Shown here piece after piece: positions 2,800-30,122 of a DNA stretch of 64,000 nt. The stretch's first letter is position 1. Every line of letters starts with the position of its first letter. The notes beneath the pieces were generated by a model. That model searched no databases, was not told where the DNA came from, and was given only the letters and a program-made list of their open reading frames with translations. The position numbers and the translations under genes were made by a program. Source of the DNA: Selaginella moellendorffii (Eukaryota; Plantae; Lycopodiophyta); NCBI RefSeq assembly GCF_000143415.4, contig NW_003314379.1, forward strand, positions 406,018-470,017, read 5' to 3'.

Positions 2800-4162
2800 C
2801 TTTTGAAATAATAGTATGGTAGAAAAAAGAAGAAATGAATCTATTAAAAATAGCCTTATTTACCATTTTAAGGATATATATCTTCATCCGTATTTGACCT
2901 CATATAGTCATCGATTCCAATCTTAAATTTTTGAACACTATCCTTAATCATATAAAGATAATTTTATGACTCCTTTATTATTTAAGAGTTTCTATCATTC
3001 CCATGATCCCAATTATAGTCTACAATTACATTAACTACTTTGCTAAGTAAAATGTTTATATGGATCACATCATCAACTCTCTAAGGGAAACCTTTTTACT
3101 AATCCCAAAATCTTAAAGTCATTTTCTCATTAGCCCCTTTCTATTCACTATATTACTTATATATTCATATATAAACTAAAGTGGAGAGTCATGCCCTCTG
3201 GATATGTTACTTCTCGAGGATAGACCCATTTATCCTTACTTCAACTCTTGTTTGTCGAAATACCTTATCAATGCTTTAGTTACCTTGAACAAGTTTTATA
3301 GTTTTTGGTTCACTTAGTTGCTACACCGTTAATCTAGCTTACTGAACTATGTTTGCAACCACAAAATTATCTAAAGCACTCATATCAATAAAGATTTTAA
3401 CAAAACTACCTCTGAGCTTCTCTCAAAGAGCTAGTAAATGTTGCAAATGACTCTCTAGCAAAGTTGCTTATGTAATGAGTAACTTTGAGCTAAAGATTGC
3501 ATCACGTACCTTAGTTTGGATTTCACCTGATTTAATGACCACATTGACTTTGGCCTTTTTTGGGTAAGGATATTCTCTCAAAAATGTTATGCTTCACCAC
3601 AATTGAAACATATGTTATTTCTTATGCTACTAGTAGACTTAGCCTTTTTATTAGTGGGTTTATTCGTTTTCACTTGAGTCCCCCACATACTTGCTCACTA
3701 GCTATTGGATTTGCATTTTTGAAACCTTAAGGACTCATTCTTAGAGAAACTCTTCTTGAATTTCCCTTTGCCATATATCCCCCTTGGTTTAGCTTCTTTG
3801 CTAAATGTGGACCCTGACCCCGTTATGTTCCTTTTTCACAAGTTATAATTGAAATGCAGCTTAATAGTTGTATCCAATACTTCCTTGTAGTTGGTCGAGT
3901 TCCAACGCATCACTTCGTCTTAAGCCTAATATGAAGGCATGGAATGCATCCATGTTGCTCATATATATGAAAGGGATCCTCTTCACCATGAATACATTCA
4001 CATACTCTTGAATAGTTTTTGTCTACTTCAGCATACTCAACTCATCCTTTAGATGTAGAGTAGCATTTGGAGGAACATAAATTGCACGAATCCTCACTTT
4101 CATCATTTCCCAAGTGGGCTAGTCCTTTATTAGCCTTTGTTGTTCTCCACTAAGACTTAGTA
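2800..4162 (-). mobile_element. Decayed LTR-retrotransposon gag-like remnant, target of element C (probably continues at 17369-17560)
   Basis: Minus strand near 3975-4000 reads IHGEEDPF, resembling a gag FxGxxDP motif; many stops; AT-rich. Boundaries approximate. Confidence 0.35.
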
Positions 4163-4592
4163 AGCTCTATTTCGTTAAAGTGGGAATTGTCATTATCCCA
4201 CTTGTAAAATAAGGTTTCCAAACCTTTATATAGTATATAAATATAACAAAATTCAACTGCATTGAGGCACATGCCATTTTATTTTAAACAAGGAAATGTC
4301 TACTCAATCACTTCTCACTGCTTCACCTCTCTCTTCTCCTTGTCATTGTCGTCCAATTTCTTTCCATCCTTTTAATATTGGCTCAGTTGCTCCGAGTCTA
4401 GGTGGAGCCCAAGTCCCCATTCAATCTTTACTTTCCCCTTATTAATAAAACAACTTCGTAGACTTCCAATAACATGCTGTAACACTTCTAGTATAATGCA
4501 AATCCTCTCAAAGAATTGTCTTTTAATATTAATACAATGGCATGGAACCCCATGCCATAATAAGTTACATTTTTAAATAAATACATGCCATC

Positions 4593-5477
4593 TCAGACTG
4601 TTATTTTTTGCCTCCAACGCCTATACAATAATCTTGGAATTTCATCACTCTCCACACTATCAGGATTTAAACCCAATAGTAATGCCATCTCTTCTCTAAT
4701 ACGTCCACGCTCATGTTCAGTGGTCGAAGAACCCATCCGGTTGAGCAGATTATGGAGATGCGGATAGTGCTTGGCTAGACAATATACATGCCATAAATGA
4801 TGACTGGTGTCTGTCCGATCAAATGGCTTCTGATATACCGTTCCATCTGCCATTTGGTTGATTTCTGCAGCCACCTCCTGGACTAGCCGGTTCTCTATCA
4901 CCATCGCTTCAAGCCGTTTTGCAAGGTCCCCCAGAACATACGGTTTCTTCTCCCTAGTTTCCATACTGCAAGAGATGGGGTGCACTGCATATGTGTGCGT
5001 GTTCGCTGCAGTTTTAATCGGCGAGTCATCGATGATGAGGATTTCACTTGACCTAGCAGTCCGGTTCATCACTACAGCCTCTGCCTTGACGAAGATGGGC
5101 TTGCTACCCCTCACATGGACCATAGTCAAGCAATCCTCCTGCGTTAGGAGAAAGTCAAATGGTAATATTACTCGCGTCTGATCGTGCATCATCTGTAGCA
5201 ATATTAATGCATTGTGGCGCATCATGGATGTCCAAACTCCCAATTGCAAATTGAACCCGGCCCTCTGTTTTAAGTGTCGCATGGTCATTATTAGATCCCG
5301 CAGTTTCTCCCGTGTGATTAATGTGAATCTGTCTCTTTTGACCAACTTGCGACCGCAGGCTTTGGAGGGTGCAGTGACATTCGAGGACGAGCCACGCTCA
5401 TGGGAGAAAAGGACACCGTTCAGATCAAAAACGATACAGTACTTTCGCCGTGACTCTGAAATGAAATGCGTTAGCAT
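4593..5477 (-). CDS. FCP1/SCP-like (NIF) HAD phosphatase-fold domain, cargo of element C
   Basis: KYCIVFDLNGVL (HAD motif I variant), LGVWTSMMRHNA (motif II), KPIFVK, ILIIDDSPIK (motif IV). Confidence 0.75.
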   Translation of the reverse strand: MLTHFISESRRKYCIVFDLNGVLFSHERGSSSNVTAPSKACGRKLVKRDRFTLITREKLRDLIMTMRHLKQRAGFNLQLGVWTSMMRHNALILLQMMHDQTRVILPFDFLLTQEDCLTMVHVRGSKPIFVKAEAVVMNRTARSSEILIIDDSPIKTAANTHTYAVHPISCSMETREKKPYVLGDLAKRLEAMVIENRLVQEVAAEINQMADGTVYQKPFDRTDTSHHLWHVYCLAKHYPHLHNLLNRMGSSTTEHERGRIREEMALLLGLNPDSVESDEIPRLLYRRWRQKITV

Positions 5478-7380
5478 AAAAAATGGTACAAGTTAATTTT
5501 ACCATCTACAATATTAGCGAATGGTGCTCCCGATGGTCGTTCAGAGGGTTTTGGTCGAGGAAACGTGAAGGGTGGAAATACTCTCCTCTGCAATGTGGGG
5601 TCAATCGCATCCGATGGCGTGTGGGCACATGCCATTTCAGCTGTAGACTCTGGTACAACTGGCTCAACAGTGGCATGGGGTGGTTCCGATGGCGTGTGAT
5701 CACACGCCATTTCAGCTGGTGCCTCCGTTGGCAAAGTGGACATGACCGAACAGGCAGCAGGGGCGGTGTAGGGAGGTTCCAACGGCGCGTAGTCAGACGA
5801 TTGGGCACACGTTGGAAATGAGGATACGACCGGCTCGGCGGCTGGGGCGGCCTCATGCGGGTCCAATGGCGCCTGGTCACCGTCAGTTGGATACGTGGAC
5901 AAGATTGACTTAGTGGTATGGGCAGCATCAAGTGGAGCGTGGTCAACTTGCTTGGCGTTGATATGGATAGTAGCCTCCACCAGCTCTGATGACTCTTGCA
6001 GGCAAGTAGAGTCCACTGGCGGATCCATATGCATGTCCAAATATCTCCCTTCGATTGAGATGGTATCCTCCCGTGCTACTAAAAACAAACTCATTAGCAC
6101 ATTGAATCGACTATACTGTATTTACCATCAACTGCTATTGAGGAACTAGGACCGATATCACTTGGGCGCACTGCTGATTCTGAAGGATTGGACATACGTT
6201 TCGACCCTTGCTTGGCACTATCCTTCCTCGACACTAAAGGCTAGAGTTTGTATCTTAATTCAACTGAATAATCTCTACTTACCATTTCTTCTGCGACCTA
6301 CATGGACAATGTTAGAAATGGTAAAAGGTTAGGAATGGATGTACTATTATTTACCTGATGGTTTGTCTTGTATGACCTTCCTCCGCTGCTCTTTGGCCAC
6401 CTCAGGCTGGCCATCATCGTCATCATCGTCATCATCGTTATTGTGATCGTCACCATTGTGAGGACCATCCAAGTCCTCTTCGTCCTCCTCTTCTTCGTCC
6501 TCCTCTTCTTCGTCCTCCTCTTCGTCCTTCTGCTCTTCCTGTTCATTATCTTTCTCTGGCTCCTCATCCCCCTCTTGCATTTCTTCCATAGGTTGCTCAG
6601 GCTAGATTGCTTGTTTTTCCAGGACCATCTTGGAAAAATCATCTGGCCGAGTCTCCATCTCAAAATACAAGACATCCATAGCCTGTTTTAGTGCGTGACC
6701 TAGGACCGTATCCTCACCCGACTGTCTTAACATGGTTTCTGCACGTTCTTGCACCCTTCGAAGACGACGAGATGAGAAAAACGTGGCCCTGACTTGAAAA
6801 GCATCCCTCATCCATTGTACCTCTCCATTGAGATTGGGGAAGGGGAGTCCGCCATAGGAATCTGAGTCAGAAGGTGGTGACTGGCTCCTTTCACTCAGCC
6901 CTTGATCTGCAATGAATGGCATGAGCACACACGCCATAACCGCGAGGCATTACCTATCATCTTTTCGTTGCCCTTCTTCCTTTTCGAATCAAACGCCTCT
7001 GATCCCGACGACTGTCCAACGTGCTTTCGCTTTTTATGACCACTGTCAGTTTGAGCTTGGCTGGTGCTTGCCTGTTTTGCCTTTGAAGAAGTGTCTCCTC
7101 CAAGGAATGGCATGAGACCACACGCCATTGCAAATATAATTTGTACCTCCTTTTTTCCTATTGCTTGTCTGTTTGTCCTTCTTCGACGCGCCACCAGTGC
7201 GCTTTTCAGTCCTCGTGTCTGAATATTCACAACGATCTATAATCAAAATGGCGTGAGGCCTCACGTGACCTTACCTTGTGCAGGTTGTGACCTCGGCCTA
7301 ACATCAGTAGCTGTTAACGCCGTTTCAGCATCTGGGGGTGGCCACGCTCCTGCATACAGAGCTTGTGAGATAACATTTAA
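5471..7380 (-). CDS. Low-complexity exons (Pro/Ala-rich, acidic tract, basic NLS-like) downstream of the ParB-MTase-like ORF, probably the same spliced gene
   Basis: ORFs 5471-6100, 6347-6589 (E/D tract), 6602-6937 and 6895-7230, with short GT-AG introns at e.g. 6907-6953 and 7237-7274. Confidence 0.5.
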
Positions 7381-7382
7381 AC

Positions 7383-10180
7383 TTAAAGTGCGTACTCACC
7401 AGGTTCGTAGAGAAGATACTGTTTTTCTTTGGCAACTGTAATTATATGCTCCATTGAAGTCACCTCTTCAATGGAGTTTGTCACCGCAACACACGGGACA
7501 CCCTTGAGTAGTGCGGCTCGAAAGAATAGTCCGCCGCAGTTGTACTCGACAACGCATTTGCCCTTGGAGTCACCCGCTATTGCGTTGAAGACCCAGCTGA
7601 GCATTTCCCATGCTGCACCTGGAGCTTTCTTTGGATTCAAAAGCTCCATAGCCGTCTTCAGTTCCTCAGGCACGGGTAAATTGACCTCCCTCAGATCAAT
7701 TCGATCGGCTTTGTTGAACGAAGCTGGGAAGTCACTCCAGTCCCACTCTGCTGCAGGACCAATAACAAGGGCGACTGTGAAGATGCGGACATTCGTCGGT
7801 ATCTTCTTCTTAGCCATTATCCCATGGATCTCCCGCATCTCCTTGCCTTTCAACCGAGCCTTCACCTCGTTCAAGGCCTTCCAGAACTTGTGATAGGATT
7901 CGGAGTCGTAGATCATATAGTGGACTGAAGATTCCACCTCCGCAAGTCCCACCATTAAGTCAATGATGGAGCTGACTTCGTCTGCATGAGTGATCTCCTC
8001 GTTTGTGAAGTCCATCACACAAAAGATGTTCTTGACCTGCTCATCTCCGCGGGAAACGATGCTCCTCCACCTTTGATCCTCATCCGAATTCACGTATACC
8101 CGGTAAGGTTCTCGATAGGCCTCTGCTGCGGGGTCGAGCTGTTTCTGAAGCCGGCGGTCGACATCCCTCTTAATGAAATTTGGATACTGATCCAACTTCT
8201 CAGCTTTACTTTTCGTGGCATCCCGCAGCAGATCGATGAACTTGGGGGCCCCCTTCACGTACTCGTCGATGTCTTCATTTGACAAGTCCAGCTCTTCCAT
8301 CATCTCTTGCGTGGTGTCGATGCTCACCCTCGCCACGGCCACTTGCTCGAAGATCCAATCCTTCAATAGCGCACGAGCTCTCAGAGTCGTGCACAAGTCC
8401 TCGTATGGCACAATATGGCCGGGAGTCATTTTGGTCTTGTTGAAGACTACCTCACCAAGTAGAAGAGCATTAGCCACTGTCAGAAGGTCGTCGTCGTCTA
8501 GAGACCGCGAGAAACGCAAGGCGTTGAGCTTCAAATCATTGGGCTTCCGGCCGTCCTCCACACCCATTGAGTTTAGCAACTCCCCGTCATGGTACCTCCT
8601 TAGCACATCTACCCATTTGTCAAAAACAACTTTTGTCGCGAGTAGAATGTTATGGATGCTGAGTGTGTCATTGACCCCCAGTGTTTTCGAGAGAAGACTC
8701 GAGAATTCCTGCAATGGAAATGGCGTGAGGCCATATGCTATGCCACATGCAACGAGGCTTACCTGCCAGGCGCTAGTTGCTAGTGCACGTCCTTGTCTTG
8801 GTTTTTGTGGCTTCTTCAGTTGAACCCAGAGCTTCCGTGTTCGTGCCAATGTCTCGTGCAGACCCGATTTGTAGCACGTTTCTTGCTTGACATTCTGCGC
8901 GTGGGAGATGTATATGATAGATCGGAGGGGCGAGTTGCCTTTTATCAGGCGGACAACTCTTGTCTTGAAGACTTTCTTCACCTCCTCGCCCACCATAATA
9001 TCCACAACTATCTGTTGCATCGCCAAGCTAGAATGCTGCCCGGAGACGGCATAGAACCGGATGTTCTGATCGTCCAACACCTTCCTATTGATCAAGTCTG
9101 GAAACCTCGTCTCGCCCTTCATTGTTCGGTAGTAGGGGATCACGTCTGCGATGTCGGGTGTTACTGGACTTGCCAGCATCTTCTGCTTCAGTTTCTCCAC
9201 CCACTCATCAGATACTAGCCTGTGGTTGTATTTGCTTTGGATCTCGATACGGCTCACGTCGATTGTATATACTTTGTTGGAATAGTAACAAGTACTATTA
9301 TCTGCGACGATTTTTGCTGCCTCTTCTTGCTCTTTCTGCTCTTTGCGGCTCTTCTTTTTGGTGGGTGTAGTGTTCGAACCCGAGGCAATGGCATCACCGA
9401 GTAGCTTCTTTTTTGGAGCAGCAGAGTCGGACGTCGGCTTGAGCTTGACCACCCTTTTCTGCTTCGGGGTAGTTTCCAGATCGACCCCCTTCCCCTTCGC
9501 TTCGCAAACTGGAGGCACTCTCAACGGCTCAATGTTGGAATATAGTTTTTGAACATCGCCGTAGGTGAGGTCCGTGGATTCCATGTGATCTTCATAGACC
9601 CGCAGCGTCTTTGAAATTGTGGGCCTCCTGGACAACCTCTCCCTAGCTCCCTCTAGGAATTCCTGATAGCCGCTGCCCCCCTCCGGGAAGCCGCTAGGAT
9701 GTGCAAGGTGGATCTTGAAGGCGGACGCTGTCTCTACCACAAGTGCCAGTCCATATTCTTGCATGGAACTGCATGGAGTGTCTGTCACTTGGATGAGGAT
9801 CCCCATGCATTCTTTTCTCCCACCATCTGTGTTGTACAGCATCAGATCCTCGCCTTCCATCCCGAAAGTCCAACTGGTGAGCTCCTCCCCCTTCTCTGCA
9901 TCCACATTGACAGTGGCTGGAAGAAGAACGCAATTCCTCGCCTGTTCAAAAATGCACAACAATTAGAGCTGACAGATGAAAAGCTAGCAGCTGGAAATAA
10001 CGTGAGGCCACACGCCATTCACCACTGCATCAGATGTCTTGAGGCTGCATCCTAAGATGGCGTGAGGCTACACGCCATCTGTAACCGGACTGCACTCGAG
10101 AGCCCAATCGGTGCATGCCAATGTTGCTACTGAATGGCATGTGGCCTCATGCCATTTTCTACTTCGTCTAAAAGACTTAC
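7383..10180 (-). CDS. ParB/Srx-like domain fused to a degenerate amino-methyltransferase-like fold (element C cargo, spliced)
   Basis: 859-aa ORF 7383-9962. ParB-like: YTIDVSRIEI..YNHRLVSDEWVEKLKQKM...FYAVSGQHSSLAM. C-terminal KKAPG..EMLSWVF..CVVEYNCGGLFFRAALLKGVPCVAV resembles MTase motifs X-I-II. In-frame 54-bp intron 8709-8762; donor GTGAGT near 7399. 5' exons and start codon uncertain. Confidence 0.65.
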
Positions 10181-10389
10181 CATTTGAAGCCGAATGGAGG
10201 CCGTGACAATCGAGGCCGGACTCGCTGGCGAATGTGCACTGTGTGTGCAGCGGATCGTAGCAGCAAGGCTACTCTGCCACTTACAGTTGGAGAGTGGTGC
10301 TGAAATCTCCCGGGACGCCAAGTGGGCTGCGTGTGGGTGGTGGAGTGGGCGGCGGAGTTGGCGGCGAAGTTACAAACTGGGTGTGTCTT

Positions 10390-10560
10390 GAAGTGGACGC
10401 CGATGCACACGAGCGCGATGCGAGCGCGAGTGTGATGCAAGCGCGAGTGGACGCCGATGCACACGAGAAACCTGTAGAGAAGTGAGCGTGATCGCGAGTG
10501 GGAGCGCGATGCGAGCGGGAGCGCGAGTGTGATGCGAGCGCGAGCGCGAGTACAAAGCAA
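10390..10560. repeat. GCGA/GCGCGA-rich CpG-dense repeats upstream of the ParB-like gene
   Basis: Repeated GCGAGCGCGAGTGTGATGC and GTGGACGCCGATGCACACGAG units; a similar GCGAGCGGC array lies at 12600-12730 upstream of the transposase. Confidence 0.7.
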
Positions 10561-10859
10561 AATGCAAAACCTAACCTCACACGCGCGAAATGTCACAACG
10601 GTTGGTAATCCCGCCACGTCATCATTCCTCGGACTTGGGCGCCACCATTAATTTCTGGATTGCCGCGCGCATGCAAGCACGCAAAATCCAAAAGAAATCC
10701 GCAACGTCATCATTCCTCGGACTGCATGCACGCGAAATCCAAAAGAAAGATCATGATTGGGATATCATTTAATACCCTCGCTATATTTATACCATGCATG
10801 ATTGGATATTCCAAAGCATCTTGTATTTCCAAAAATGGCAGATGTTCAGCTAAATAAAG

Positions 10860-12230
10860 AAATTCTATCTGTTTCTATTTTTCTCTCAAATCAATATTAT
10901 AGCGTGTGGGCTCATGCAATTTTGAACCAAAGAAACCCAAAAAACGTTGGACCCAAAATATTTTGAAAAAACCCAAAAAACCCTAAACATTTTAAACCCA
11001 AAAATCCAGGCGTCCTGTGGCGTTATTCCTTGAATGGCGTGTGGGCGCATGCCATTTTCAGGGCCAAATGCTGAATGGAGAAAAATTCCCTTTCAGTGCA
11101 AATGCTGCAAGAGGCAGATGCCGAGCACAAAGGACTGTAACTACCTCACATGACACAGATAAATTTTTCTCTATTTGGCAAAGATAAACTTTATAGCGTG
11201 TGGGCTCATGCAATTTTGAACCCAAAAAATGCACCAAAAAATTCTCGGCGTCATCTGGCATTATCTCTTGAATGGCGTGGGGCCGCATGCCATTTTCAGG
11301 GGCACATAGGAGTATATTCCTAGGATATTCTGACACGCGCGAGATTTTTTTGAGTTTTCTGGAGATCCAACCGTTAGATCGCAACTAGATTTTACAGAAT
11401 GGTATACAATGTCTTTCTTGATGACCCTGCAAAGAAGCATCTCAATCGGACACCACATGAGACCACACGAGCCTTACAATGTTTCAGGGGCATTTGCCAT
11501 AGATCCGACCGTTATTTTGCTCCAAGATTTCACAGTTTGGTGTGCATTGACCTTTCCATCGAAACTGCAAAGGGACATCACAATCAGATCCGGGATCACA
11601 AGAAACTAACTTCACTAACTCTGGTTTCACCAAGATCTACGTAAGGAGTTATGAAATGAAAGGACCCTCTCTATTGAAATGTGTTTATGGTCCTAGGGGC
11701 ATTGTGACATATCAAAGGATTTTGCATCAAGTTCTGTATTTGCATGTTTATCAAGCTACTGAATTGCTAAACCCTAAACCCTAAACCCTAAACCCTAAAC
11801 ATGTGGCAAATGCTGCGTGAAGAAAGATGCCCTTTCTGGGCAAATGCTGTAAGAGGCAGATGCCGAGCAGATGTATCTCAGGCTAGCGAAGGGGACGAAC
11901 GAAAGCTAGCTATAAACATGACGGGATGCAAATAGATTACTAGGCTGGTCCTACGAAAATCAAAAACCATAATTGAAAACATTGAAAATGCAAAAAGAAA
12001 GGTTTATAATATTTTTGAATTTTAGGCAACCAAAGGAATGTAAGTAGGGCATGTGTTTGTAAGTTTAAAAATGCCTCAACCACTTAAATTCCCAAGTAAA
12101 TAAAGCTGTTTCTATTTTTGGTACAGGTAAACTTTATAGCGTGTGGGTTCATGCAATTTTGAACCCAAAAATGCACCAAAAAATGCTCGACTAGCATTAT
12201 TCTTTGAATGGCGTGTGGCCTTATATTGCC
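10860..12230. repeat. Three related direct-repeat blocks in the divergent intergenic region of element C
   Basis: TATAGCGTGTGGG(C/T)TCATGCAATTTTGAACC...TTGAATGGCGTG at ~10898, ~11192 and ~12135; GCAAATGCTG(C/T)AAGAGGCAGATGCCGAGCA at ~11098 and ~11839. Confidence 0.8.
11767..11800. repeat. Interstitial plant telomeric repeat (CCCTAAA)n / telo-box array
   Basis: CTAAACCCTAAACCCTAAACCCTAAACCCTAAAC. Confidence 0.9.
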
Positions 12231-13094
12231 ATAAATGGACGTACACACACAGCGTAATTATTCCTTTACACGGCGAATAATCTTGGCGCGGATCGCTGAC
12301 ATGGCATGGCAAAGTTCGAATCACTGACATGGCACAGCTGGATCGAGGCAAGGACATGATGTGACAAAGTTCAACCTCCGACAGCAAAGTCTAGAAGCTA
12401 CTCAGTTTGAAATTTGTCAGAGGAATCATAAGATCTGGTTTGTCAGAGGATTTGATGTGACGTTCAAGCGTGTGTTATTTTTGAATTCTCGAACTCATTC
12501 CTAGGTCTATCATTTTTGTGCGCCGTGTTCTTGGTTCCGCTGAGCGCAGTGAGCGCTGCTTGTGTAAGCGGCGTTGTGGGCTGTGGTTTATGCGTCTACG
12601 AGCGGTTGCGGCATTGCGAGCGCCATTGCGAGCGGCAGTTTATGCGAGTGGCAGTTTGTGCGAGTGGCGCTACGAGCAGTTGCGGTGTTGCGAGCGGCGC
12701 TACGAGTAGTTGCAGTGTTGCGAGCGGCACTGTCTTTGGTGTGGCTACCGCTTCCTCTTGATATTCGGCACTTGTGCTTCCTGGTATGTTCACCATGGAA
12801 TGGCTTAGGACCACATTTAGAAATGGCATGAGGCCACATGCCATCTTGGGCCCTTGCAATTTCATGGCTAGCGTATTGTCATGTATGTTTTTACTTGCCT
12901 GCAGCTGTGTGTATATCAAGATGGCATGAGGCCTCATGCCAATTTTGTGAATGCGAAATTTCACGTGGGTGTCAATAGCATGTTTGAATAATGGCATGTG
13001 GCCTCATGCTATTGAGGTTGTTTGGTATGTTATGATTTAGGCCATTCTCCAATCATTTTTTGTATGGTCTTAACTTCTTTTCTGCACTTTCAGA

Positions 13095-16000
13095 ATGGCC
13101 TTCAGGGTTGGGGAAAAGGTTTACATTTTGAATGGTGGGAAGAGAGTTGCAAAAGGGACCCTTGTGTCTATGGATCGGAACTTTGTTATACACTGTGAAA
13201 GGCTTGGGGAAGGCAATGCTGCTGTATCAGTAGAGACTGTCTTCGATGGGAATGTGGTCGCTATTGAACGAGGAGAGATGGTCGTCGGGGTAAATGTTGT
13301 TGTTGCCTTGAAAAATCTTCAGAAGAAAGCAGATGTTGGGGACAGCGCAAGTGCGACGCATGTTCCCTCCGTGGATCTTAAGAACCGTGCTACATGGATT
13401 TAGGCAAAAGTGTTTCTAAACAACCCCGAGGGGGAGGTGGTAGCTGAGGGCTTAGCCACAGTTGTCGATCCAAGAGATGCGGTTGCTAATCAAGAATTGG
13501 GCTGGGATGATATTGGAGTTGCGATTTTAAAGGTTGTTGACACAGAAGAAAACAGTCTGACTATTGGAAGCATTGTGCGGTGGAAATTGAGGCACTTAGT
13601 GTTTGAGAATGTGAAGGATTCACAATCAAACACCACTACAACTGATGATAGAACATCTCTTCATGGGAAAAGAAAGTACACCTTCCTAAAGCGCAGCCAA
13701 AGGGATCTGAGCAACGAACCGAAAAGGCAGAAAATGGCGATGGAGGTTCGAATGGTCTCGACAGTTGCTTGTTGCAAGAGGAGGTGCTGTCAACATGCTG
13801 ATTGGGATGCTATTGAAGAGGAGAGAGCAAGATACAAGACATTGTCCTGGAAGGCAGCTCGCAATTTTGTGTATGAGGCATTACGGTCATCTGTTGATGC
13901 TTCAGAACATCAGGTGGGGGGCATGGTCTTCCAGAGGGGTTTGGTCTGCATGAAGGCATGGAGAATCATTTATGGAGTCCCTCGAAGCACATTCTACAGA
14001 ATCAAAACTGAGTTCGAGGAACAAAGGGTTCAACAGGCAGTCCATGGGAACGACGGTACGCACAAAACCAGGGGTCATGTTGTATATGGAGAGGCAATCT
14101 TCAAGAGGTTTGTCGAGACATGTAGCGAGCAGCAACCACATAAAACCCGGCTCTTGGAAGATGGAACACGAGACACCCAACGAGTTCTCCCTTCCATGTA
14201 TACCAAGGGGGCCATATTGGAAGATGTGAATCGGGAACTCCAGAGTAATGGCTACAGGAAGCTGAGCCAATCTAGATTTAGTAGATTGTGGAGCAACAGG
14301 TTCAGGGATGTGAGTATAGGAAAGTACTCCAGCTTTTCAAAGTGTGACGAGTGCACTGCTATCAAAATGGCTTTGTCGAAGAATTCTTGCAGCGCTCAAG
14401 AGCGAGAGACGTTGGTTAGAAGGCGGCTCGACCACAACATCGAGCAGAGAAGCTGCAGGACTGCATATTATCATAACAGGATTCTCTCCATGGAGAGACC
14501 TGACTCTTACCTCTACATCATCCACGACAAAATGGACCAGAAAAAGACGTGCTTACCTCGACTCAATCCTGCCCCCAAGGCAATCTCTTCATCCATGCAG
14601 CTGCCTGTGTCTCTGTTTGGCATAATCGCTCATGGGCATGGTGCCCAGAACTATGGGAACTTCTTTGTACCTCTATGGGGTGGCGGGGGTGCAAACATGA
14701 TGATTGCGTCCCTAGCAAAACACTTAAGGTCTCTGCAAAGTGCGCAGACTGAGCTGAACGGCCAACCCTTGCATAAGGCCCTTGTCGATCGAACCCCATA
14801 CAGGGTTCAGCTGGAGGAGGAGCAAAGGCTTGCAGTATCGCGTGGGGCCCCATGCCATCCCAGTGAATATGTTGGCCGTCAGATTGTAGGGTTATCACGT
14901 GAGGCCTCATGCCATTCCGACGAGGCTGGTCGCCCGGTGAATGCACAGCCTCATCCAAACGAAGCAGAATCTCAAGGAAGTTCTTGCGGCTGATGTGGCC
15001 TTCCACCCCATCTTCTGCTCCAAACAGACAATGCTGGCAGTGAGAACAAAAACATGTACGTCTTCGCGTACTTGGCGATGCTTGTTGCCAAAGGCATATT
15101 TGAAACGGTTACACTTGGCTTTCTCATGGTTGGGCACACTCATGAAGACGTCGATGCCATGTTCAGTCACCTGGCAGAGTCCCTCCGGCGATCCAATGTC
15201 CTCACCCTCCCACAACTCTACGATGAATTCCAAAATTGCATCAAAGGCACTGTTGAAGCTGCACTTCTGACAGAGGTTCCAGACTTTAAGGGGTTTGTAA
15301 GAGGCTACATCAGGGATGGATCCGAAACGCTGATTGGCCACTCCAAGCCTCTTCAGTTTCATTTCAGCATGTGTGACGGTGCTCCAGTGATGAGGTACAA
15401 GATGAGAGAATGGGACACAGTGTGGCTGCCAGTGGACGGCATTGAACTCTTCAAGAGAGATCCCATAACTGGGGAACCTATGATTCCTCAGGGTTCCCCA
15501 CGGCCGATGCACCCGGATGGACTCAAAGACCAGGAAAGTATAGTGGCCGGGATTAGACAGCATATTGCCTTCTGGAAGAGGGGGTTGGTGTTTGGTGGAG
15601 AATCCTATTTTCAGAGGTGCAAGCCTTTGCTCGAATACTGGGAGAAGATTATATCTGCTATCCAAAATGGGCCGGTTGTATATGAAGAATTGGAAGAGTC
15701 CTTTTGGCCAGAACCCAGAGCACCAGATAGTAGCGGAACAATGTCCTCTGGAAATGCAGTGACAGATAACGATGTTGAGGATCACTATTGTGGGCCGAGG
15801 AACAAGAAGCCGGATTCAGCATTCAATCCAGTACAGGTCTGCAAAGGAATGGTCGTGCTTGTCAGACCCAGTAATAAAAAACAAATGATATGGGTGGGGC
15901 GCTGCATCACTGATGCAGAGGAGGACGCGGAAACTAACTCCTTCAATGTAACTGTGGAGTGGTTCAAGCCAAGTTCCGGATATACGAAGGATTGCCTAGA

Positions 16001-16163
16001 AAAGAGATGGGTGCTGAATCCAAGGGATCCCAGCATGAGCATATCGGTGGATAATGTTGTGCATGGTTGGATGCGGAAGCAGAGTGCCACCATCACCTTG
16101 CCAGACCATGCAAGAGATGCAGCAAGAGCATTCATAACTCGGGTTCAAGGTGAGATTCATTAA
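13095..16163 (+). pseudogene. Sola-like DDD transposase of element C (~1020 codons, two in-frame stops)
   Basis: ORFs 13095-13403, 13410-14993 and 15054-16163 share one frame, interrupted by TAG 13401 and TGA 14991. Motifs FSKCDEC, IIHDKMDQKKT.LP, LLLQTDNAGSENKN, FLMVGHTHEDVDAMFS. Confidence 0.85.
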
Positions 16164-16349
16164 TATTCCTTTACAAAGTTTCTAATGTATTTTTTTTCAA
16201 GGTGAACAATCTGAATCTGAATCAGAGGAGGCTTGATATAGTGTGTGAGGTAAAACAAAGATGATGTGACATATGCATTTACCAATCACACGTGCATAAA
16301 TCTAATAATATGGCGTGTGGCCCATATTAATGGCACATAAACCCATATT

Positions 16350-16709
16350 GTGGGCTTACGTGCTTTATGTACCATCATTCCCTTGCAGCGTGTGTGTTGG
16401 TTTCCTTTTATAACACAACGAACTCCATATTTTAGGGTGAAGAGCGTTCTCATGGCAAGCACAAAATCTGTAAGTGAGGCAGAAAAGGAGACGGAGAAGG
16501 AGATAGGTGAAGATGTAGAATATATAAGTCTTCCAAACTCCCCGTACTATACTCCAGGTGATCATTTTTCTGAACAAATGGCAACATTAACAACTATCGA
16601 GAACGCCCCAGTAACGTCAGAGACAACAATCCAAAGCAAAACAACTGACCCGGAGAAGGATGATAGTACTGCCGAGAGTACCAAAAAGGAGGTGTCCACT
16701 AGCGCTTAG
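16350..16709 (+). CDS. Small SPYYTPG-motif cargo ORF of element C (likely start at ATG ~16452)
   Basis: EYISLPNSPYYTPG...ENAPVTSETTIQSK...STAESTKK is clearly similar to ORFs 22466-22780 and 54447-54761. Confidence 0.65.
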   Translation: MGLRALCTIIPLQRVCWFPFITQRTPYFRVKSVLMASTKSVSEAEKETEKEIGEDVEYISLPNSPYYTPGDHFSEQMATLTTIENAPVTSETTIQSKTTDPEKDDSTAESTKKEVSTSA

Positions 16710-17563
16710 GCTTATAATGGCGTGTGCCCTCATGCCATTTACTTGATCACCAAATACCTTTTTCCCTTTGCACTAGTATATCTTAATACCGGTCTGAGAA
16801 ATAGAATGGCATGTGCCCTCAGGCCTTTTACTAAATCACCTTTGAAAGAAATGCAAGCCTCTATGTCGTAAAAAAAAGGTACTAGAGAAATTCCTTAATA
16901 ATATGAATGTTATTTAGTTTCATGAAAATACACTAAGGGTCAAATGAGTTAAATGACTTCTCCAGACTAGCAATGCCTCTTGCTACACCTTCACAATTAG
17001 ATTCGTTAGAAAAAGATAACATTGAATAATATCTAAATGTTCTCACCATTAAGTTATATGTCTGGCTAATAGGAATGATGTTCATCTTGGAAAGCTCACC
17101 ACACGCTCAATGAACAAACAAATAGTGTGTGCGCGCATGCCATCGCTCTTCTTTAGCTTCAGATTCGGCTTGTTCACCTTGACAATGAGATTTATTATAC
17201 AACTAGATGGACTCAGTCTGGACATAAGGTCACCGCGCTAGTCACCATGCCCCAGATATGTCTAGCCCCTGGACAAAAAACATATAATTTCACGTCATTT
17301 TCAAATACTTGAAAATTTGTACCTAGTCCCATTTTACTGAATAAATCCCACTTTAACGAAATAGAGCTTTAGTATTATTTGCCAAGTATGGTTTTGCACA
17401 TGGGACCCTTTTTGAGCTCAGTAACTACAATACTCAGAAGTAATCCTCTATATCATAAAATTAATCCTCCACCACTTTATAGTTATTCATTCCCTTGAAA
17501 ACTGATAGGGGCTTTGGTTTGTACTAGGGAATTATTTGAAGGATTGATTCCACTTAGGTTTGC

Positions 17564-21373: not shown

Positions 21374-22175
21374 CTAGTAGCTGATCCAGGATCCATCAAG
21401 CTTGAAGAACTTCGAGTTGGAATGATGGATATGGATTGCTGCTGAAAGGCACGCTGTGTCTTCCAAGCCACCATCGTTGGGAACTTGGATCACTTTCATG
21501 ACCTTGCAATCCTCCTTGACTGCCCAGATGTTCTTCTGGCAGCTCACACCACAGAACCCAAACTTGCTATTGCTGGAAGAAGCGTTTGTCAGTTGGAGTG
21601 CCTCCCATGAGTTGTTGCCACTGTCATATCTCTGCAACAACGATCTGGTTATGTCGGCATCATACATCTGGTTGGCATGTACAATACAACAGCACCCATG
21701 CAATCTAGTCATGTCCACCACTTCCCAGGAATGGTCTTCTGCTGAGAAAACAAGTGTCTCTCCATTACCAGCATGTTCTTGTTACCATCCATGATGAGAG
21801 CATTGTGAAAGGCCATGGTCCCATGCGGTGACAATGGTAGGAGAGGATACCATTGGTCCTCCAGCAGATTGTAGGAGAGGATACCATTGGTCCTCCAGCA
21901 GATTGTATGCATTAGCGTCCTGTTTCTCCCACTCACGGTTGCCACCAACCCCCCATAGCTGCGGATGCAAAGAAGAATTGAGGACACAGCATTGGTGCTG
22001 TGGTGCTCCATTGATTCGTGTGTGAATCTAAGATGCTCAGTGATTTACTGTGGCCCCATCCTCCAATAAGATAGAGTTTGCTGCCAAGGGCCTTGCAATC
22101 AAATCCTCCAATGTCGTTGAAGTCTTGTGGTGGAGGAGGAAGAACCACCCACACTTTCTTTGAGCTACTGGGATT
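21374..22175 (-). pseudogene. F-box/kelch pseudogene, 3' part (interrupted by element A)
   Basis: High identity to 907-1908 (LQRYDSGNNSWEALQLTNASS, GFDCKALGSKLYL) with frameshifts and a short internal duplication at ~21840-21905. Confidence 0.9.
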
Positions 22176-22465
22176 GGGGATGGTCTAAAGTTGAGTTGAG
22201 CTCACGAGTTGAGCTCAATTCAACACAAGTTAACTCAAGTTAATATAGTCAATAAGAAGTATTACAAAGGAAATCTAAATTGAACAAATGAAGGTTCTAG
22301 CAAACTTTAAAATATTAAAAAACATAAATATCTGAGTTAAAAGTTTCTATAAAATTGAAATGTTTAAAAAAGACAAAGTTCATGAGAATCTATCTTTTAT
22401 AAAACTATATTATTTTATTATGACAACTGTTATAGCTGTCATATTTGATTTGACTACTTAATATT

Positions 22466-22780
22466 TTGAATACTTTTACAGCTATAGATGTTATTCCTTC
22501 ATTCAAAAGATTTTTTAGAGTTCTTGAGAAGATGGGAAGCAAGGAAAATACAAGATCTGTGAGTAAGAGTTGTAGTGCAAAAGAATGTGAGAATGCTAAT
22601 TTTGTTTCAGTGCCACAATCTCCATATTACACTCCTGGTCTTTATTACCCATTTGGGAATGTGGAGACCACTATCACGATTGATAAAAATGCCCCTATTA
22701 CTTCTAAAACAACAGTCCAGAGCAAGAGAAAGGAAGAAATGAACAGCACGTTGGAAAGCACCAAGAAATCTACTCCATAA
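22466..22780 (+). CDS. Small SPYYTPG-motif cargo ORF (element A)
   Basis: FVSVPQSPYYTPG...NAPITSKTTVQSK; open in both A and B. Confidence 0.6.
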   Translation: MNTFTAIDVIPSFKRFFRVLEKMGSKENTRSVSKSCSAKECENANFVSVPQSPYYTPGLYYPFGNVETTITIDKNAPITSKTTVQSKRKEEMNSTLESTKKSTP

Positions 22781-23370
22781 AACTTTCCATAACATTTGTA
22801 ATTTACATATTAATTCATATAAAAAACTTTGTTGCCTGCTTATATCGCAATCCTCTCATATGATAAGACCAAGGTATATTTTGCAATGAATCCTCATTAA
22901 AAGATTTTGGGAATTGTTTGTAAATAATAATAAAAGAAATCAAAATCTTTCGAAAGACTCAAAAGTAATATCATATTAAAGAATCAACTTTTTCTACATT
23001 TCCAAGACTGAAAGGCAATCTCAGATGAGAGAATGGTAGCGTGCCAACATGCTCTACCACTATAATGTGGTCTATATTTCCTTGTAGTTTATTTCCCTAG
23101 ACATTTGGCATGTGTAGAAAAGAATATATGTGTAGCAAAGTAGGATTCATCATAATGATAGAGCATGTGTATGCACGATAATCTAAAATTTTAGAAGCTC
23201 TTATGTTTACAAGAAAGCTATGATTATAAAGCCCCATTTCCAAGACTGACATTTAAAGAATCTAAATATTGTGAGTGTCATAATAAATAAACCTCATTCC
23301 CAAGACTAAAACTGAGTATATAAACTATCTAGAAAAGCTGTAGTCATCGTAGATTTTTTGTTCTCCTTAA

Positions 23371-23963
23371 TGTAAACAACCAAAGGGAACGACTTGAGAG
23401 ACGGTCCATGGGGTTCAAATATAGAGGGAAAGGGCCCATGAATAAAAGTGCACCCCCTTTTCCAATCGGTTAAGGGTTTTGGGATATTTGGAGTTAAGTG
23501 TCCTTGGGTTTGAATAGTACTGAGTTGGGTGACCTCCCGGGAAGTCCAAACTCAGGAGTTTACTTTTGGTATCAGAGAGGTCTCGGGTCCGACTCTGTTG
23601 GTTGGCTAGGGGAATCACATCACATGTTGATTGACATCTGGCTGGTCCAGTTTGCTCCCGCTGGGCTCAACCCGAGGGGTAGGGTGTCAAGAGAGCATGG
23701 CTCTCGGGAGAGCTGCGGCTCTCAGCTTTCGTTCACGAGGGCGTGAACTTGCAAGGAAGCGTGGTGAATTGTAAGCAACCAAAGGGAACGATTTGAAAGA
23801 CGGTCCATGGGGTTCAAATATAGAGGGAAAGGGCCCATGAATAAGAGTGCACCCTCTTTTCCAATCGGTTAAAGGTTTTGGGATATTTGGAGTTAAGCGT
23901 CCTTGGGTTTGAATAGTACTGGGCTGGGTGACCTCCCGGGAAGTCCAAACTCAGGAGCTTACT
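23371..23963 (+). mobile_element. Cassandra-type TRIM with 5S rRNA-derived LTRs
   Basis: 194-bp LTRs 23371-23564 and 23770-23963 containing 5S-like AGTTAAGCGT...AGTACTGGGCTGGGTGACCTCCCGGGAAGTCC; PBS TGGTATCAGAG (tRNA-Met); TSD CTTAA/CTTGA; element B has the empty site. Confidence 0.92.
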
Positions 23964-23964
23964 C

Positions 23965-24537
23965 TTGAGCTCTTTAGAAGCTTGTATTGAAATGACTCAA
24001 AGGAGAGCTATTGCTACTCATACTTGGCCCCCCAACATTTCATATCAATCTCCACCTCCATCCCCAAGTTCTACCAACATTTCACTTTCACCTCCACATA
24101 ACAATCCTTTTTTTGCTGAGGGCTCTAGTGAAGCTGAACTAGAGCTCCCTATATGTGAAATTCCGAATCTTACTACTAGAGAGGGATTGCTTCCAGCGCT
24201 TCAAGAGCAATGCCACATGTTTTTACAAGATTTTGCTCCTGACATGGCGGGATTATTTGAAAGCACAGAACACTATTACATTCGGTGTCCAATATGCTAC
24301 TTTTTCTTAGACAAGACAAATGGCTCTATGGGTTTACAAACTTTTCTTGAGCACTGTAGGAATTGCCCAATAGCAGGTTTGGAAAATATGCATATGTGGA
24401 TGTATAATAGATTCAAAAATGAGTTACGGACACATACCCACTATCGCTTCATGGTGAGGAACAACATCCCCTTGGGAAACACTACATCGGTTAGTGCAAA
24501 ATATGGGGTTTTTAGGCCACCCTACAGTGGAATGTAA
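23965..24537 (+). CDS. Cargo protein with CPIC...HC...H zinc finger (element A)
   Basis: RCPICYFFLDKTNGSMGLQTFLEHCRNC...MH; open counterpart at 53196-53777. Confidence 0.6.
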   Translation: MSSLEACIEMTQRRAIATHTWPPNISYQSPPPSPSSTNISLSPPHNNPFFAEGSSEAELELPICEIPNLTTREGLLPALQEQCHMFLQDFAPDMAGLFESTEHYYIRCPICYFFLDKTNGSMGLQTFLEHCRNCPIAGLENMHMWMYNRFKNELRTHTHYRFMVRNNIPLGNTTSVSAKYGVFRPPYSGM

Positions 24538-24825
24538 AATCTAGAATTACTTTACTATACTATAGTATTGTCACTATTAAAAGAAAAATATAATAAAATG
24601 ATATTAGTTGTAGGTAACATACCTTGTTCTAGAAGGTGCTATCATATCACATATAATTGTTACAAAATGTTGAAGGAGGAGATGGCAACACACAAGCGCT
24701 ACAAAGTGATGGTGACAGGTGAGAATGATAATTTGCAATTATGATATCTGACAATTTTACTGACATCTAACACTTTCATTGACATCTAACATATAACAAG
24801 CTTTCTATTTTATGTAAGGATGCAA

Positions 24826-27800
24826 TTAACTTTCTTCTGCCTCATCATCAACATAATGATTTCTTTTATACTTCCTCCTATATTGGTATTGTGGGGAAGA
24901 TTCACCTTGCATATGTTGAGCTATGGCTTCTGCATAGTCAGGGAGATTTCCAAAGCCTCCAATTCTAGAAACTCCAGGTGACTGTGATCTATAAATTAAA
25001 ATTAAACATATATTGAAATTTTAATAAACATAATTTACCTCCTTGAGGTTCGAGGTAACTCACGAAATCCTCTAAGCCAAAGTTTGAAGAAATGATGTTC
25101 TTCAATAGCAAACACCGACCTACCAGAGTCATGTGCTACCTCCACTATAGAACCACTACCTGCTGTGCAATCAATCACAACACCATCTGGTGGGCAATAG
25201 AGCTCAAGCAAGACTTGCATTGCCGAATGGAGTTCGAAATTGGTACCCTGGAAACGTGTTGCGGATCTGCTCATCCATAAGGTTGGGTATGATGTTAGTG
25301 GAACTGTCGTACCCAGGCAAAACACGTGTTGCACGTTCACTATCATGAAACCCATCATGTGTATTTCTGCAGAAGGCATGATAGGTCCACATCATAACCT
25401 GGAATATAAAAATGTTTAGAAATTAGATAAAAATATAAAATACGTACTCACTTTTTTAGGCTTCTCTTGGACACCCCTCGTATTAATGCCAATAGGATCC
25501 ATGATGCACCCGGAAGAGAATGACTTGAAATGAACTTTTGCTACGCACGTCATAAGCTCATACATCCAGTTGGGGTCATTCGGTAGGATGAAGATGACAT
25601 GGCTAGCTTCGAGCATAAGTGCTTCGGACAATAGGAATGCATTGCGTATGTGGTTAGGTATGAGAAAGTTCCAATCCTCAACTTTCCCATTGATATTTGA
25701 AAGACCATCTGGAAAGTCGAAGAGAATGAAGTCCGCAACTGGGAGCAAGGGCCTTTATATCTTTCGGCACCAACAGTTGAATTGGCGCCATACATCCATG
25801 TTGATGTCATCTTCTGTGAAAGATGTCAACAATCTACTGTAAGAGCCAATGAAGATACCCATAATGCCTCGTTGTGTTATTGGGGACATAGGACGGACCT
25901 ATAAAAGAGCTAAGTGAATGAAAAAAACAATAAATAGTATGCTACTGTCATATGGCGTGTTGTCAATGAGAGTTCCTCCAACTCCTCTTCACGAGCATCT
26001 TGTCAAGCTGGAATGATTTTACTACCAACAGTCATTGCTGCAAAAAACATGTATTACCACCTTTAGTTTGTAAAATTCACTTTTGCTTACTTCGAGGTCA
26101 ACATGATATTCTGTGACCCACTTGATCATCGTTATTTACTGGTAGAACCTAATCCGAATCTTGGTTGTTTGATGGTTGAACTGGAGCATGATCCTGGCTG
26201 TTTGGTGGTGGAATACGAACTTGATCTGGAGCTTCCTCATCCTTGTCTCCATTGTCACTTGCATTGCTATTGTTGCTAGCATTGACAACTTCCTCACGAT
26301 CTAGTGTAGAGGTCTCCTTCCCTATGAGCTCCAACTCCCAAGGGCATTTTATCTTTTATGCCTTTGGAACTCTCGCAAACATTGTTAAGTACATTCCTTC
26401 ATCCCTTACACCCTTTGCAACAAGTCGAGTTCAAACTGGTGCCTCAAATGGCATGCCTCTATATCGAAGATACCTATAAACAATATATATTAAAAAATAG
26501 TCTTAGAAATCATATTATACTTGTAAGCTGCACGTCGCATGAAATAAAGTTGACCATGTTGGCAATCATAAGTTGTTGTGCTTGTAGACTTCTCTGGCAG
26601 CCACCCCTCTTTGATCCCTTCCAATGACGTATTGATGTAGGTGTCAAAAGACATGAATGTGCCATCTGGATCGTCACCAATATATGGTGCCAAGAACTTC
26701 TCACCTTCACTTATGGTTTGTGTGATGTAAACAACCCTTCTCATCATGTTCTCAAATAGTTCTAGCAGTCCTTTCTCTCTGTTCATCAAGCAGACATTGA
26801 GGAACTCTAGAGTCTCTATCTGTTGCTTATATGGAAGCTTCGATTTTGCAATATTGTAAATCATGTCATCTGGAGTTTTGTTCACTGCAAAAGTAACATA
26901 TGCATAATTGAGAAAAATGAAGTGAGATAAGAAACTTATATTCATGAGAAGAAATTTCGGCTATAGTCTCTAGTCACTCTTTCGGCCTGTGATTGTCTAC
27001 TATGCATACTAATTTCTTCAACTTTGAGGACTTTGCATGCTGAATTTTGTGCTCAATTTGAACAAACTCAGCTGAGAGCTCTTCCCAACTCTTCTCTGGA
27101 TATGCAAGTTCGTAAGCATCTTGCTTGACCTTCACCAAAGGCTAAAAACCAAAACAATTAAAAGAGGCTTTTATAAAATAAAAGGGAAAGACATACCTTA
27201 CACCACACAACGAGCATAAAACTGATTGGGTTGTTGAACCAAGTTGTATTGTCATTTCGAGTGCGTGAGTGTCGAACAAGTGTTGCGAGATCATCACCAT
27301 AATGTTGGCGGATGTCATCCTCACTCAAATCTGCCAAAAATCGAAGTTGCTCGATGTCATGGACAAGGTTTTGTTTTTGAACAGCAAATTGCCCAAGCCT
27401 ACATTTAAACACAACAAAACAAGTTAAAGTGGAGTTACGCATTGATCTTTTGGCAGGCCAAGATAAGTCTGTTGACATCTAAAGGTCCCCTCACTTAGAC
27501 ATGGCTGACTGGAATGTTGATATGGTAGATAGGATCATCGCGAAAATGATCGTCGATACACTTCATCTAAGCTCTATATTGGTGGTTACCATCAATAATT
27601 TGGAACATTGTCCCCGCAAGCTGTTGAGTCTCAGGATGTCTGATAAGCATGTCATCAAATTCTAAGAACTTCCTCCTCCAAATAGGATCCCTGCTATTCA
27701 CAATCTCAGGTGTGATGGTAATGATCTTCGTTGTTCCTAGCTTGCAAAAAGAGACTAGAAACATACCAATGTTTGTTGCAAGGCCATTTTGTTTGAACAA

Positions 27801-28947: not shown

Positions 28948-28984
28948 CTTTCCTTCCCGATTTCTTGATCATGTTGGATTTCTT

Positions 28985-29220
28985 GTGCGCTCAATCTCTC
29001 CCGCTTGCGCGCTTAATCTCTCCCGCTCAGACGCTCAATCTCTCCCGCTCGCGCGCTTAATCTCTCTCGCTCATGCGCTCAATCTCTCCTGCTTGCGCTC
29101 TCAATCTCTCCCGCTCGTGCGCTCAATCTCTCCATCTCTTGCGTGCTCAATCCCTCGATCTCCTTCGTGCTCAATCCCTCGATCTCCTTCGTGTTCAATC
29201 TCTCGATCTCTCGTGCGCTC
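28985..29220. repeat. Tandem GCGCTCAATCTCTC repeats 5' of the ParB-MTase gene (copy in B at ~48535-48775)
   Basis: About 11 units of ~20-22 bp, followed by CCCTAACCCTAA telo-box-like motifs at ~29260-29295. Confidence 0.85.
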
Positions 29221-30122
29221 CACTCACAGTGCGAACAGTAACCTAATCTTGGCAGCTACCCTAACCCTAATCCTGACGGCTGCCCTAACCCTAATCAATC
29301 TCTCATCCTGGTCGTTCATTCCAAATAACCTAAATCTCAACCATCACAATATCTTTGATCTTATTTTATCTTATCATTATTATTATATGTAAATTATGCT
29401 TCTTTATTTTGTATATTTTAATGATGATATAACTAGCACCTATCAACATTTCTGTTATTAGAGATATCATATTATATTTTATAAATTATCTAGAAAGAAT
29501 GCATTCTCATCAATATTTTGTACATATTTTGGAATCGTTACAAGAACTTTAAAGAGTATAAATAAGGCACATTAAAATATGTTGTACTATATCCATCTAT
29601 GAATGGATGAATCCTCATCCAGTAATTTATTTTGTGTTGTATTAGATCTTAAATAATAGGCATGTGCTTTAAATGTCATTGAGCAATGTTCACAATTATG
29701 GATAAAACTTGAGTTGTACTACGAATCAAATCTGTCAGTGAAGAATAAGATTTGACAAGATTTATTATCAAGATTTATTATCATCTACCACTTAAAATTT
29801 GACAACTTGACATATCACACGTACTGACAGTCAAATTGAATCTCTTTTCTTGACACGCTATAGCAGAATGTCATTACTGATATCATTATTAACTATCAAA
29901 CTTCACATGCTGAAAATCCTTCCTTGGATCTATGTGTATACATGCATCAAACATCATAATAGATGACAGTAATATTAATACTGTCACACTTGAACATGTT
30001 AAATTTGCTATATAATTTAAATTCATTTTGTACGTTGTCTTCTTATTACTCTATTTAAATTTCAATTATGTTTCACTATGGATTTTTACAAGTAGCATAA
30101 AGAAAGAGAACTCCAAAACCTA

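Follow-up and report, generated by a model that had tools for sequence, protein, structure and literature searches.

Two described systems come closest to the locus reported here. Sola1-1_Ec32 of Ectocarpus carries, opposite its transposase gene, a gene for a ParB-like and N4C/N6A methyltransferase protein, whose suggested function is to bind the element that encodes it and to modify it (PMC12477816). In VANDAL21, the non-coding parts, introns among them, contain a 9-bp motif to which VANC21 binds (PMC5735166). Fusions of ParB-helix-turn-helix (HTH) and methyltransferase domains are described for chlorophytes and chytrids (PMC4738411). Here we analysed a 64,000-nucleotide stretch of contig NW_003314379.1 of Selaginella moellendorffii (the window), which contains a whole Sola1-like DNA transposon of 13,208 bp (element A, 4162..17369). 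Its accessory gene (4593..10183, minus strand) has several predicted mini-introns, four of which each contain one copy of a 22-bp palindrome. Our reading, to which we give a probability of roughly 55%, is that this palindrome is the DNA site of the ParB-fold protein encoded by the accessory gene and that it colonised the mini-introns by taking over their branch point. ParB-methyltransferase accessory genes in algal transposons, with proposed binding to their own elements, and intronic VANDAL21 motifs were known beforehand; the concrete candidate site and its probable overlap with the branch point are new here, and a literature search (few subscription journals, no supplements) returned no account of such palindromes as branch points or of this land-plant element.

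Element A resembles Sola1-1_Ec32 in being a large Sola1-type element with an accessory gene opposite the transposase gene, and in the order of a ParB-like followed by an amino-methyltransferase domain. The two, likened by description only, differ in that element A has a land-plant-type host, degenerate methyltransferase motifs and an added NIF domain. It also offers a candidate site, the palindrome with its 22 copies, some of them in introns, whereas the accessible part of the Sola1-1_Ec32 account names no target motif (PMC12477816). With VANDAL21 and VANC21 it shares an element-specific motif amassed in non-coding parts, including the introns of the accessory gene, binding by the accessory protein being only proposed for element A. 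VANDAL21 is Mutator-like with a 9-bp non-palindromic motif in tandem arrays, whereas the 22-bp palindrome of element A is dispersed, occurs once in each mini-intron, where it covers the branch-point position, and goes with an unrelated protein. No Pfam match to the VANC protein family was obtained in element A, which has predicted ParB and methyltransferase folds and a DUF7869 transposase instead. In bacteria, ParB, Noc and KorB act through palindromic sites. Like these proteins (structures 7ol9, 7bm8 and 8qa8), the accessory protein has a predicted ParB/sulfiredoxin fold and several palindromes dispersed over the replicon that encodes it; it differs from them by the lack of a ParA in element A, by the sequence GQHS, by a helical region in which no HTH was identified, by a 22-bp site with a 6-bp spacer and by a eukaryotic, intron-containing gene.

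The motif, ATGGCRTG-N6-CAYGCCAT (fuller consensus ATGGCRTG-WGGCCW-CAYGCCAT), occurs in 22 copies with at most four mismatches, compared with 0.01 expected from 100 shuffles, and the palindrome reported in the first-pass annotation of this DNA is thus borne out. With up to six mismatches 25 copies were obtained (shuffle mean 1.4), all located at 4256-17143 and thereby confined to element A; the motif is absent from 21-56 kb of the window, and an exact-motif scan of metagenome contigs for the DNA of relatives gave no match. The accessory and transposase genes are arranged head-to-head, and the spacer between them holds eight of the 22 palindromes (10899, 11034, 11193, 11272, 12136, 12823, 12921 and 12991; 10899..13012 in all). 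Two lie downstream of the transposase (16717..16827), one downstream of the accessory gene (4537), two in a Pro/Ala-rich exon of the accessory gene (5614-5635 and 5689-5710), two in the transposase gene (14837 and 14894), and seven in introns. Introns make up 8.4% of the positions of the accessory gene and hold seven of its nine copies (binomial p 9e-7), or four of six if the first intron is left out (p 7e-5). Per kb, introns have 10.3 copies, non-coding DNA elsewhere 2.4, and the coding regions of the two genes 0.41 and 0.65. This placement fits the earlier proposal that binding sites housed in introns leave the protein unaltered, for which VANDAL21 provides a precedent (PMC5735166); that the copies serve as sites is suggested by analogy. 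Exonic copies had been assigned to low-complexity linkers; one pair lies in the Pro/Ala-rich exon, and the pair at 14837 and 14894 is found in an 88-amino-acid variable insert of the transposase core, which measures 47-118 amino acids in 23 of 31 homologues and 3-17 in the other eight. An intronic location of this pair was ruled out, as the homologues carry a variable insert at that place.

The sequence of the copies points to recognition at the DNA level. Positions 6 and 17 of the two arms pair in nine of the 22 copies (shuffle mean 9.3), and this absence of covariation is expected of a DNA site that is read in either arm. Half-site positions 5-6 read CG 20 times, CA 23 times, CC once and TG never (44 half-sites), indicating that the C of one strand is fixed and that the other strand accepts C or T. 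Such tolerance would suit a binder indifferent to methyl-CpG. We consider it likely that the motif is bound as DNA by a protein that the element encodes.

Ten predicted GT-AG introns join the ATG at 10183 to the stop at 4593 and give an accessory protein of 1637 amino acids with one internal stop, at codon 1035. Contigs of the runs X1 and X8 differ from the window at 6604, inside this stop, so that the window copy is slightly decayed. Four introns on the minus strand begin with GT, end with AG and contain one motif copy each, which accounts for 41-58% of their length: 6907..6953 (47 nt, phase 1, palindrome 6916-6937), 7098..7146 (49 nt, phase 1, palindrome 7107-7128), 7237..7274 (38 nt, phase 1, palindrome 7248-7269) and 8709..8762 (54 nt, phase 0, palindrome 8720-8741). 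All four had been proposed in the first-pass annotation and hold as predictions, having GT-AG ends, a single copy each and support from the frame or from homologues. Five motif-free introns of 47-57 nt in the same gene had been overlooked: 7350..7399 (50 nt), 6298..6354 (57 nt), 6234..6282 (49 nt), 6079..6125 (47 nt) and 5456..5502 (47 nt), the last immediately before the NIF domain. Selaginella introns are described as differing sharply in length from those of other land plants (PMC6157073). Retaining any of nine introns adds stops to the frame; retaining 8709-8762 adds none, and the case for this intron therefore rests on homologues.

Splice sites were scored with a model derived from 14 further introns in the window, and the scores were compared with those of 119 exonic GT and 201 exonic AG dinucleotides. 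Donor and acceptor of both 7237-7274 and 8709-8762 outscore all of them, and the acceptor of 6907-6953 scores well. The acceptor at 7098, GAG, is weak in the window; owing to a variant at 7100, the X8 contig has CAG there. With GT-AG ends, a branch-point-like word near the 3' end and a frame that is restored on removal, the predicted introns have the features of spliceosomal U2 introns, and the four that carry the motif singly are very likely real.

Between the motif and the 3' end of the intron lie 9-11 nt in each of the four mini-introns (p about 0.001 if placement were random), and on the sense strand the motif reads CTCAY with the A at -16 to -18, namely CTCAT with A at -16 in 6907..6953 and 7098..7146 and CTCAC with A at -18 in 7237..7274 and 8709..8762. 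The branch-point consensus is CTRAY, and a word of this type with the A at -15 to -22 is present in the first intron of the gene and in four of the five motif-free introns, 6234..6282 being the one without it. The motif thus occupies the position of the branch-point-like word of motif-free introns, suggesting that it doubles as branch point. Sense-strand CTCAY is found in 4/4 mini-intron copies compared with 5/18 other copies (Fisher p 0.017), and none of the four mini-intron copies has a mismatch in its 3' arm, the 5' arm being decayed in two. The CTCAY of the motif is probably the branch point that is used.

The 5' end of the gene has to be modelled differently from the first-pass annotation, which had placed three further mini-introns there (10127-10180, 10052-10085 and 9991-10023). 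As a set these give a stop and cannot be combined into an open frame; 9991-10023 does not start with GT, whereas 9991-10022 does and has decent splice sites. Of 602 stop-free GT-AG paths that start at ATG 10183 and reach the long frame, every one uses the acceptor at 9942, 36 keep 10127-10180, and none combines it with 10052-10085. The simplest model is a single predicted intron 1 directly after the ATG (9942..10180, minus strand, 239 nt) with three motif copies (9997, 10057 and 10134) and the word CTAAT, its A at -22. The N-termini of fern homologues align by eye with the residues that directly follow this intron.

The predicted parts of the accessory protein follow the order ParB fold, helical region, degenerate beta-class methyltransferase fold, linkers and NIF domain. 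The model of the first region (8763..9329, minus strand, SGQH motif; predicted local distance difference test (pLDDT) score 78.8) matched Noc in Foldseek (E 1.3e-4), with ParB next, and aligned with PadC over 99 residues (Z 9.4, root-mean-square deviation (rmsd) 3.0), so that the earlier label 'ParB-like' is supported at the level of a predicted fold. The second region (7401..8114, minus strand, model pLDDT 62.7) has a predicted fold of the permuted, beta-class N4C/N6A DNA methyltransferase type and compares with CcrM (E 2.3e-5; Z 13.2, rmsd 4.6, 205 aligned). Beta-class methyltransferases are marked by a catalytic (D/S/N)PP(Y/F/W) and an FxGxG motif; in place of these we found DFTN and EYNCGG here and DLRR or DSAN in homologues. 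Judged from models and motifs, both enzymatic-looking domains appear degenerate. The C-terminal part (4596..5455, minus strand) is an NIF/FCP1-type HAD domain with the motif DLNGV (PF03031, E 1.8e-5, above the cut-off). Of 12 fern proteins with a match to the ParB-like profile, ten carry NIF in the same chain, which supports the long gene model. No ATPase family that could provide a partner ParA was detected with Pfam among the element A frames scanned.

A word-based protein search with the long frame gave no match. HMMER gave 18 matches, from which two repeat proteins, P0035 and P0036, were set aside. Homologues that carry a name belong to Selaginella moellendorffii, a fern, liverworts and a moss. 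When both accessory-protein alignments were searched against PDB sequences, nothing meaningful resulted, and scans for the DNA of relatives were empty for metagenome contigs (by protein) and viral contigs (by transposase). By Atlas features, the nearest named family for the ParB-like region of a fern homologue is DUF3723 (score 0.96), likewise an accessory protein of mobile elements and a conserved cargo of fungal Starships (bioRxiv 10.1101/2021.12.13.472469). The element class is different, however, and Pfam gave no DUF3723 match for the window protein or its 18 homologues. One homologue of Selaginella moellendorffii, LOC9650508 (P0032/P0050; 449-451 amino acids, two scaffolds only), lacks most of the ParB-like domain and NIF and is possibly, by its sequence, a domesticated copy of the accessory gene.

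The transposase of element A is encoded by a single frame on the plus strand (13095..16163; DUF7869, DDD/E-type, PF25273 E 1e-39) that is interrupted by two in-frame stops, at 13401 and 14991. Residues D478, D481, D645 and D687 are invariant in 31/31 homologues. The element is bounded by perfect 24-bp terminal inverted repeats (TIRs; 4162-4185 and 17346-17369), and both the DDD catalytic triad and TIRs, tested as Sola1 features, are present. The triad is a feature of Sola transposases; the motifs fit those of Sola1, to which DUF7869 is provisionally linked through them, and we call the element Sola1-like. Sola1 target-site duplications are 4 bp long; here TAGT is duplicated at both ends, and a 6-bp reading, TTAGTA, fits the single copy equally. 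In this one insertion the TAGT target does not match the AWWT/AWDT preference described for Sola1 families of insects (PMC3845634); target preference and occurrence of Sola1 in plants are covered by PMC3845634 and PMC9033089. CG-rich short tandem repeats closely precede the start codons of both genes of element A (10420-10560 for the accessory gene, 12560-12720 for the transposase gene), and the intergenic spacer contains a short run of plant telomere-type repeats at about 11.8 kb.

A second family in the window, element B, is present in two inverted 12-kb copies that are 93-95% identical (22176-34428 and 43348-55051). Its SWIM-like transposase frame scores below the cut-off (E 0.011), and its nine-intron gene (ATG 48810, stop near 52880) comprises 1073 codons without an internal stop. 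This gene has a methyltransferase match just below the cut-off (PF01555, E 1.9e-5) with motifs, DFPD and DCTAGSGS, that look less decayed than those of element A, and the sequence IIDGNHR, a putative motif of ParB type. Intron 1, 434 nt long and located after four codons, carries a palindrome different from that of element A: it is filled with palindromic units of 75-96 bp (48822-49255 and about 28430-28935; core AGGTTATTYRAATAACCT, half-site SCCGAGGT), and 13 of 14 window matches to the half-site fall in the first introns of the two copies, the 49-kb copy of the intron containing a gap of 106 N. Profile comparison of the ParB-like regions of elements A and B aligned 15 columns only (probability 0.2%), so that the two are at most remotely related. 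Element B thus looks, by sequence, like a second, unrelated transposon with a parallel layout, in which a ParB-like/methyltransferase gene is combined with palindromes of its own in intron 1.

This parallel bears on a different assignment of the palindromes, namely to the transposase, which might use them for synapsis or self-activation in the way of the subterminal repeats of hAT and CACTA elements, with the accessory gene as a bystander. Transposases can regulate their own copies in a sequence-specific manner, and TnpA binds clustered motifs at the ends of Spm (bioRxiv 10.64898/2026.08.24.746577); moreover, the element A transposase has N-terminal domains outside its catalytic core (a weak match to PF03017, and PF26133 in homologues). 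However, 15 of the 22 copies are located at 6916-13012, more than 2.7 kb from either end, the terminal repeats are devoid of the motif, and element B has a different transposase and the same combination of a ParB-like gene with intron 1 palindromes. We therefore regard transposase sites as unlikely, and lean towards the ParB-fold accessory protein as the binder of the motif.

The mini-introns might also owe their existence to the motif, as the first-pass annotation had considered; for intron 8709-8762, its age argues against this. Removal of its 18 codons raised the scores of the three phmmer homologues that span the site (from 56.6 to 72.0, 36.5 to 49.4 and 35.1 to 48.4 bits); 14 other matches shifted by -4.7 to +1.1 bits, and one of the dropped repeat proteins lost its match. 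Among the 16 homologues kept, three are annotated spliced models at this site, one starts just after it and one ends before it, and the other 11 frames all have Val at the aligned position (picked by eye) followed by a stop within 1-28 residues, a pattern that would result from calling frames on unspliced DNA at a phase-0 GT donor. Fern gene models join exons at this position, and a Selaginella moellendorffii homologue has two annotations that are identical except for two residues at the site. Judged from these alignments, the position is old, being shared by homologues (21-34% identity) in ferns, liverworts and a lycophyte.

In a motif-seeded gain, a palindrome in a linker exon would have brought CTCAY along and nearby GT and AG dinucleotides would have completed a new intron, or a cassette of motif plus acceptor would have been copied like an introner. 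The constant distance from motif to AG and the similar tails of the four mini-introns speak for such an origin, as do the 87% identity of introns 6907 and 7098 over 31 nt, the clustering of three motif introns within 370 nt of non-conserved linker and a GC content of 0.43-0.53 compared with 0.28-0.38 in motif-free introns. Nevertheless, the only datable intron, 8709-8762, has the same geometry at its old site, the exon flanks are free of target-site duplications, and the gene has five motif-free introns of similar size and phase. The small exons are not duplicates of one another (p 0.05-0.74), which also rules out exon duplication as the origin of the linker introns. Introners are short introns that share a repeated sequence; here, only the motif and a short tail are common, lengths and 5' parts vary, no target duplication is seen and one position is old. 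Seeded gain is thus improbable.

A short repeat may also spread neutrally by slippage and gene conversion and survive where it is harmless. The spacer copies are indeed accompanied by longer duplicated flanks, but isolated copies with unrelated flanks keep four positions per half-site invariant or nearly so over 13 kb, coding exons included, which makes neutral spread very improbable. Very improbable as well is a role of the motif as an RNA hairpin that would mask the branch point and thereby restrain splicing of the accessory transcript. In its favour, an 8-bp stem with the branch A in its 3' arm can form in two of the four mini-introns; against it, the other two have a decayed 5' arm and a weak fold (about -5 kcal/mol), the arms do not covary and 11 of the 22 copies lie outside any predicted gene body.

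Several observations weigh against the palindrome as a protein-binding site that took over the branch point. In two of the four mini-intron copies the branch A would be enclosed in the stem if the full hairpin (-10.5 kcal/mol) formed. The branch-point tests rest on four introns and are post hoc, their windows having been chosen after viewing these introns, and the introns were predicted with the motif positions already known. Two donors are weak, their scores being reached by 18% (6953) and 9% (7146) of exonic GTs, and the acceptor at 9942 is moderate only (reached by 6% of exonic AGs). All eight downstream introns are in phase 1, so that skipping of the small exons located between 6954 and 7349 would preserve the frame; the motif copies would then still be intronic but outside mini-introns. 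The element B motif is confined to intron 1, the other eight introns (47-61 nt) being AT-rich and motif-free. As to the protein, the CTP-binding arginine motif of ParB is GxxR; the corresponding position reads GQHS here, the family having invariant G-Q-H followed by S or L. No HTH was identified in the helical region after the ParB fold by PDB sequence or Atlas searches, fold searches having barely covered it.

RNA evidence weighs in the same direction. We compared 4300-11600 with one raw RNA run (X9) and three contig runs (X1, X2 and X8; X2 is RNA by guess), and no spliced junction was seen over this region in the four runs, with almost no coverage. Most of the 197 reads of X9, about 170, match nothing but a 40-bp piece, 10248-10287. 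The others, about four reads' worth as estimated from depth, are located at 9668-10170 with the first mate on the plus strand, corresponding to RNA of the accessory-gene strand, and both reads over 10165/10167 are inside predicted intron 1. The contig of X2 is unspliced at 9783-10175; as it has 12 differences and a foreign end, it is likely from another, truncated copy. That of X1 is unspliced as well, yet it covers upstream DNA to 10804. The 40-bp piece lies in the 5' region of the accessory gene; the flanks of the reads that match it presumably correspond to the 3' end of large-subunit ribosomal RNA, and an Rfam search gave no match for the piece and otherwise one chance match only.

Elsewhere the window contains a further mobile element and genes that mark it as eukaryotic and plant-like. 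A Gypsy-type long terminal repeat (LTR) retrotransposon with 177-bp LTRs of 94% identity (34428-39441) abuts the first copy of element B. Three copies or fragments of a Kelch F-box gene are located at 898-1905, 21374-22184 and 40335-41130, one of them being cut by an end of element B, and a GRAS gene is found at 41257. CG-rich short tandem repeats lie just upstream of the start of the ParB-like gene in both element B copies (48534-48796 and 28942-29165). Short frames near one end of each element (16341-16709 in A, 54450-54773 in B) share SLP(N/Q)SPYY(T)PG(D/P) and are possibly, by this sequence, a third small gene common to both families.

Under our reading of the palindrome as the site of the accessory protein, this protein would bind two GCRTG half-sites as a dimer, and the dimer would mark members of the element family over the entire length of each copy. 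Marking would most likely keep the copies expressed or mobile despite host methylation, as VANC21 does on VANDAL21; we propose this anti-silencing role, drawn by analogy, only tentatively. Given its degenerate domains, the protein may act as a binder or scaffold. The mini-introns colonised by the motif would be of the ordinary host type, one or more of them being old, and overlap with the branch point would let a 22-bp site fit an intron of 38-54 nt without lengthening it. A wider and rather doubtful generalisation is that unrelated plant transposon superfamilies carry a domesticated ParB-parS-like module that loads on family palindromes, spreads, and shields or re-marks the element, the sites being placed over branch points in compact genomes.

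Element A provides a candidate target for the proposed self-marking, and the second family in the window serves as a specificity control, so that recognition can be tested by gel shift. If true, VANC-like self-recognition would extend to a bacterial-type protein in land plants, and one short word would be read both as a protein-binding site and as a branch point.

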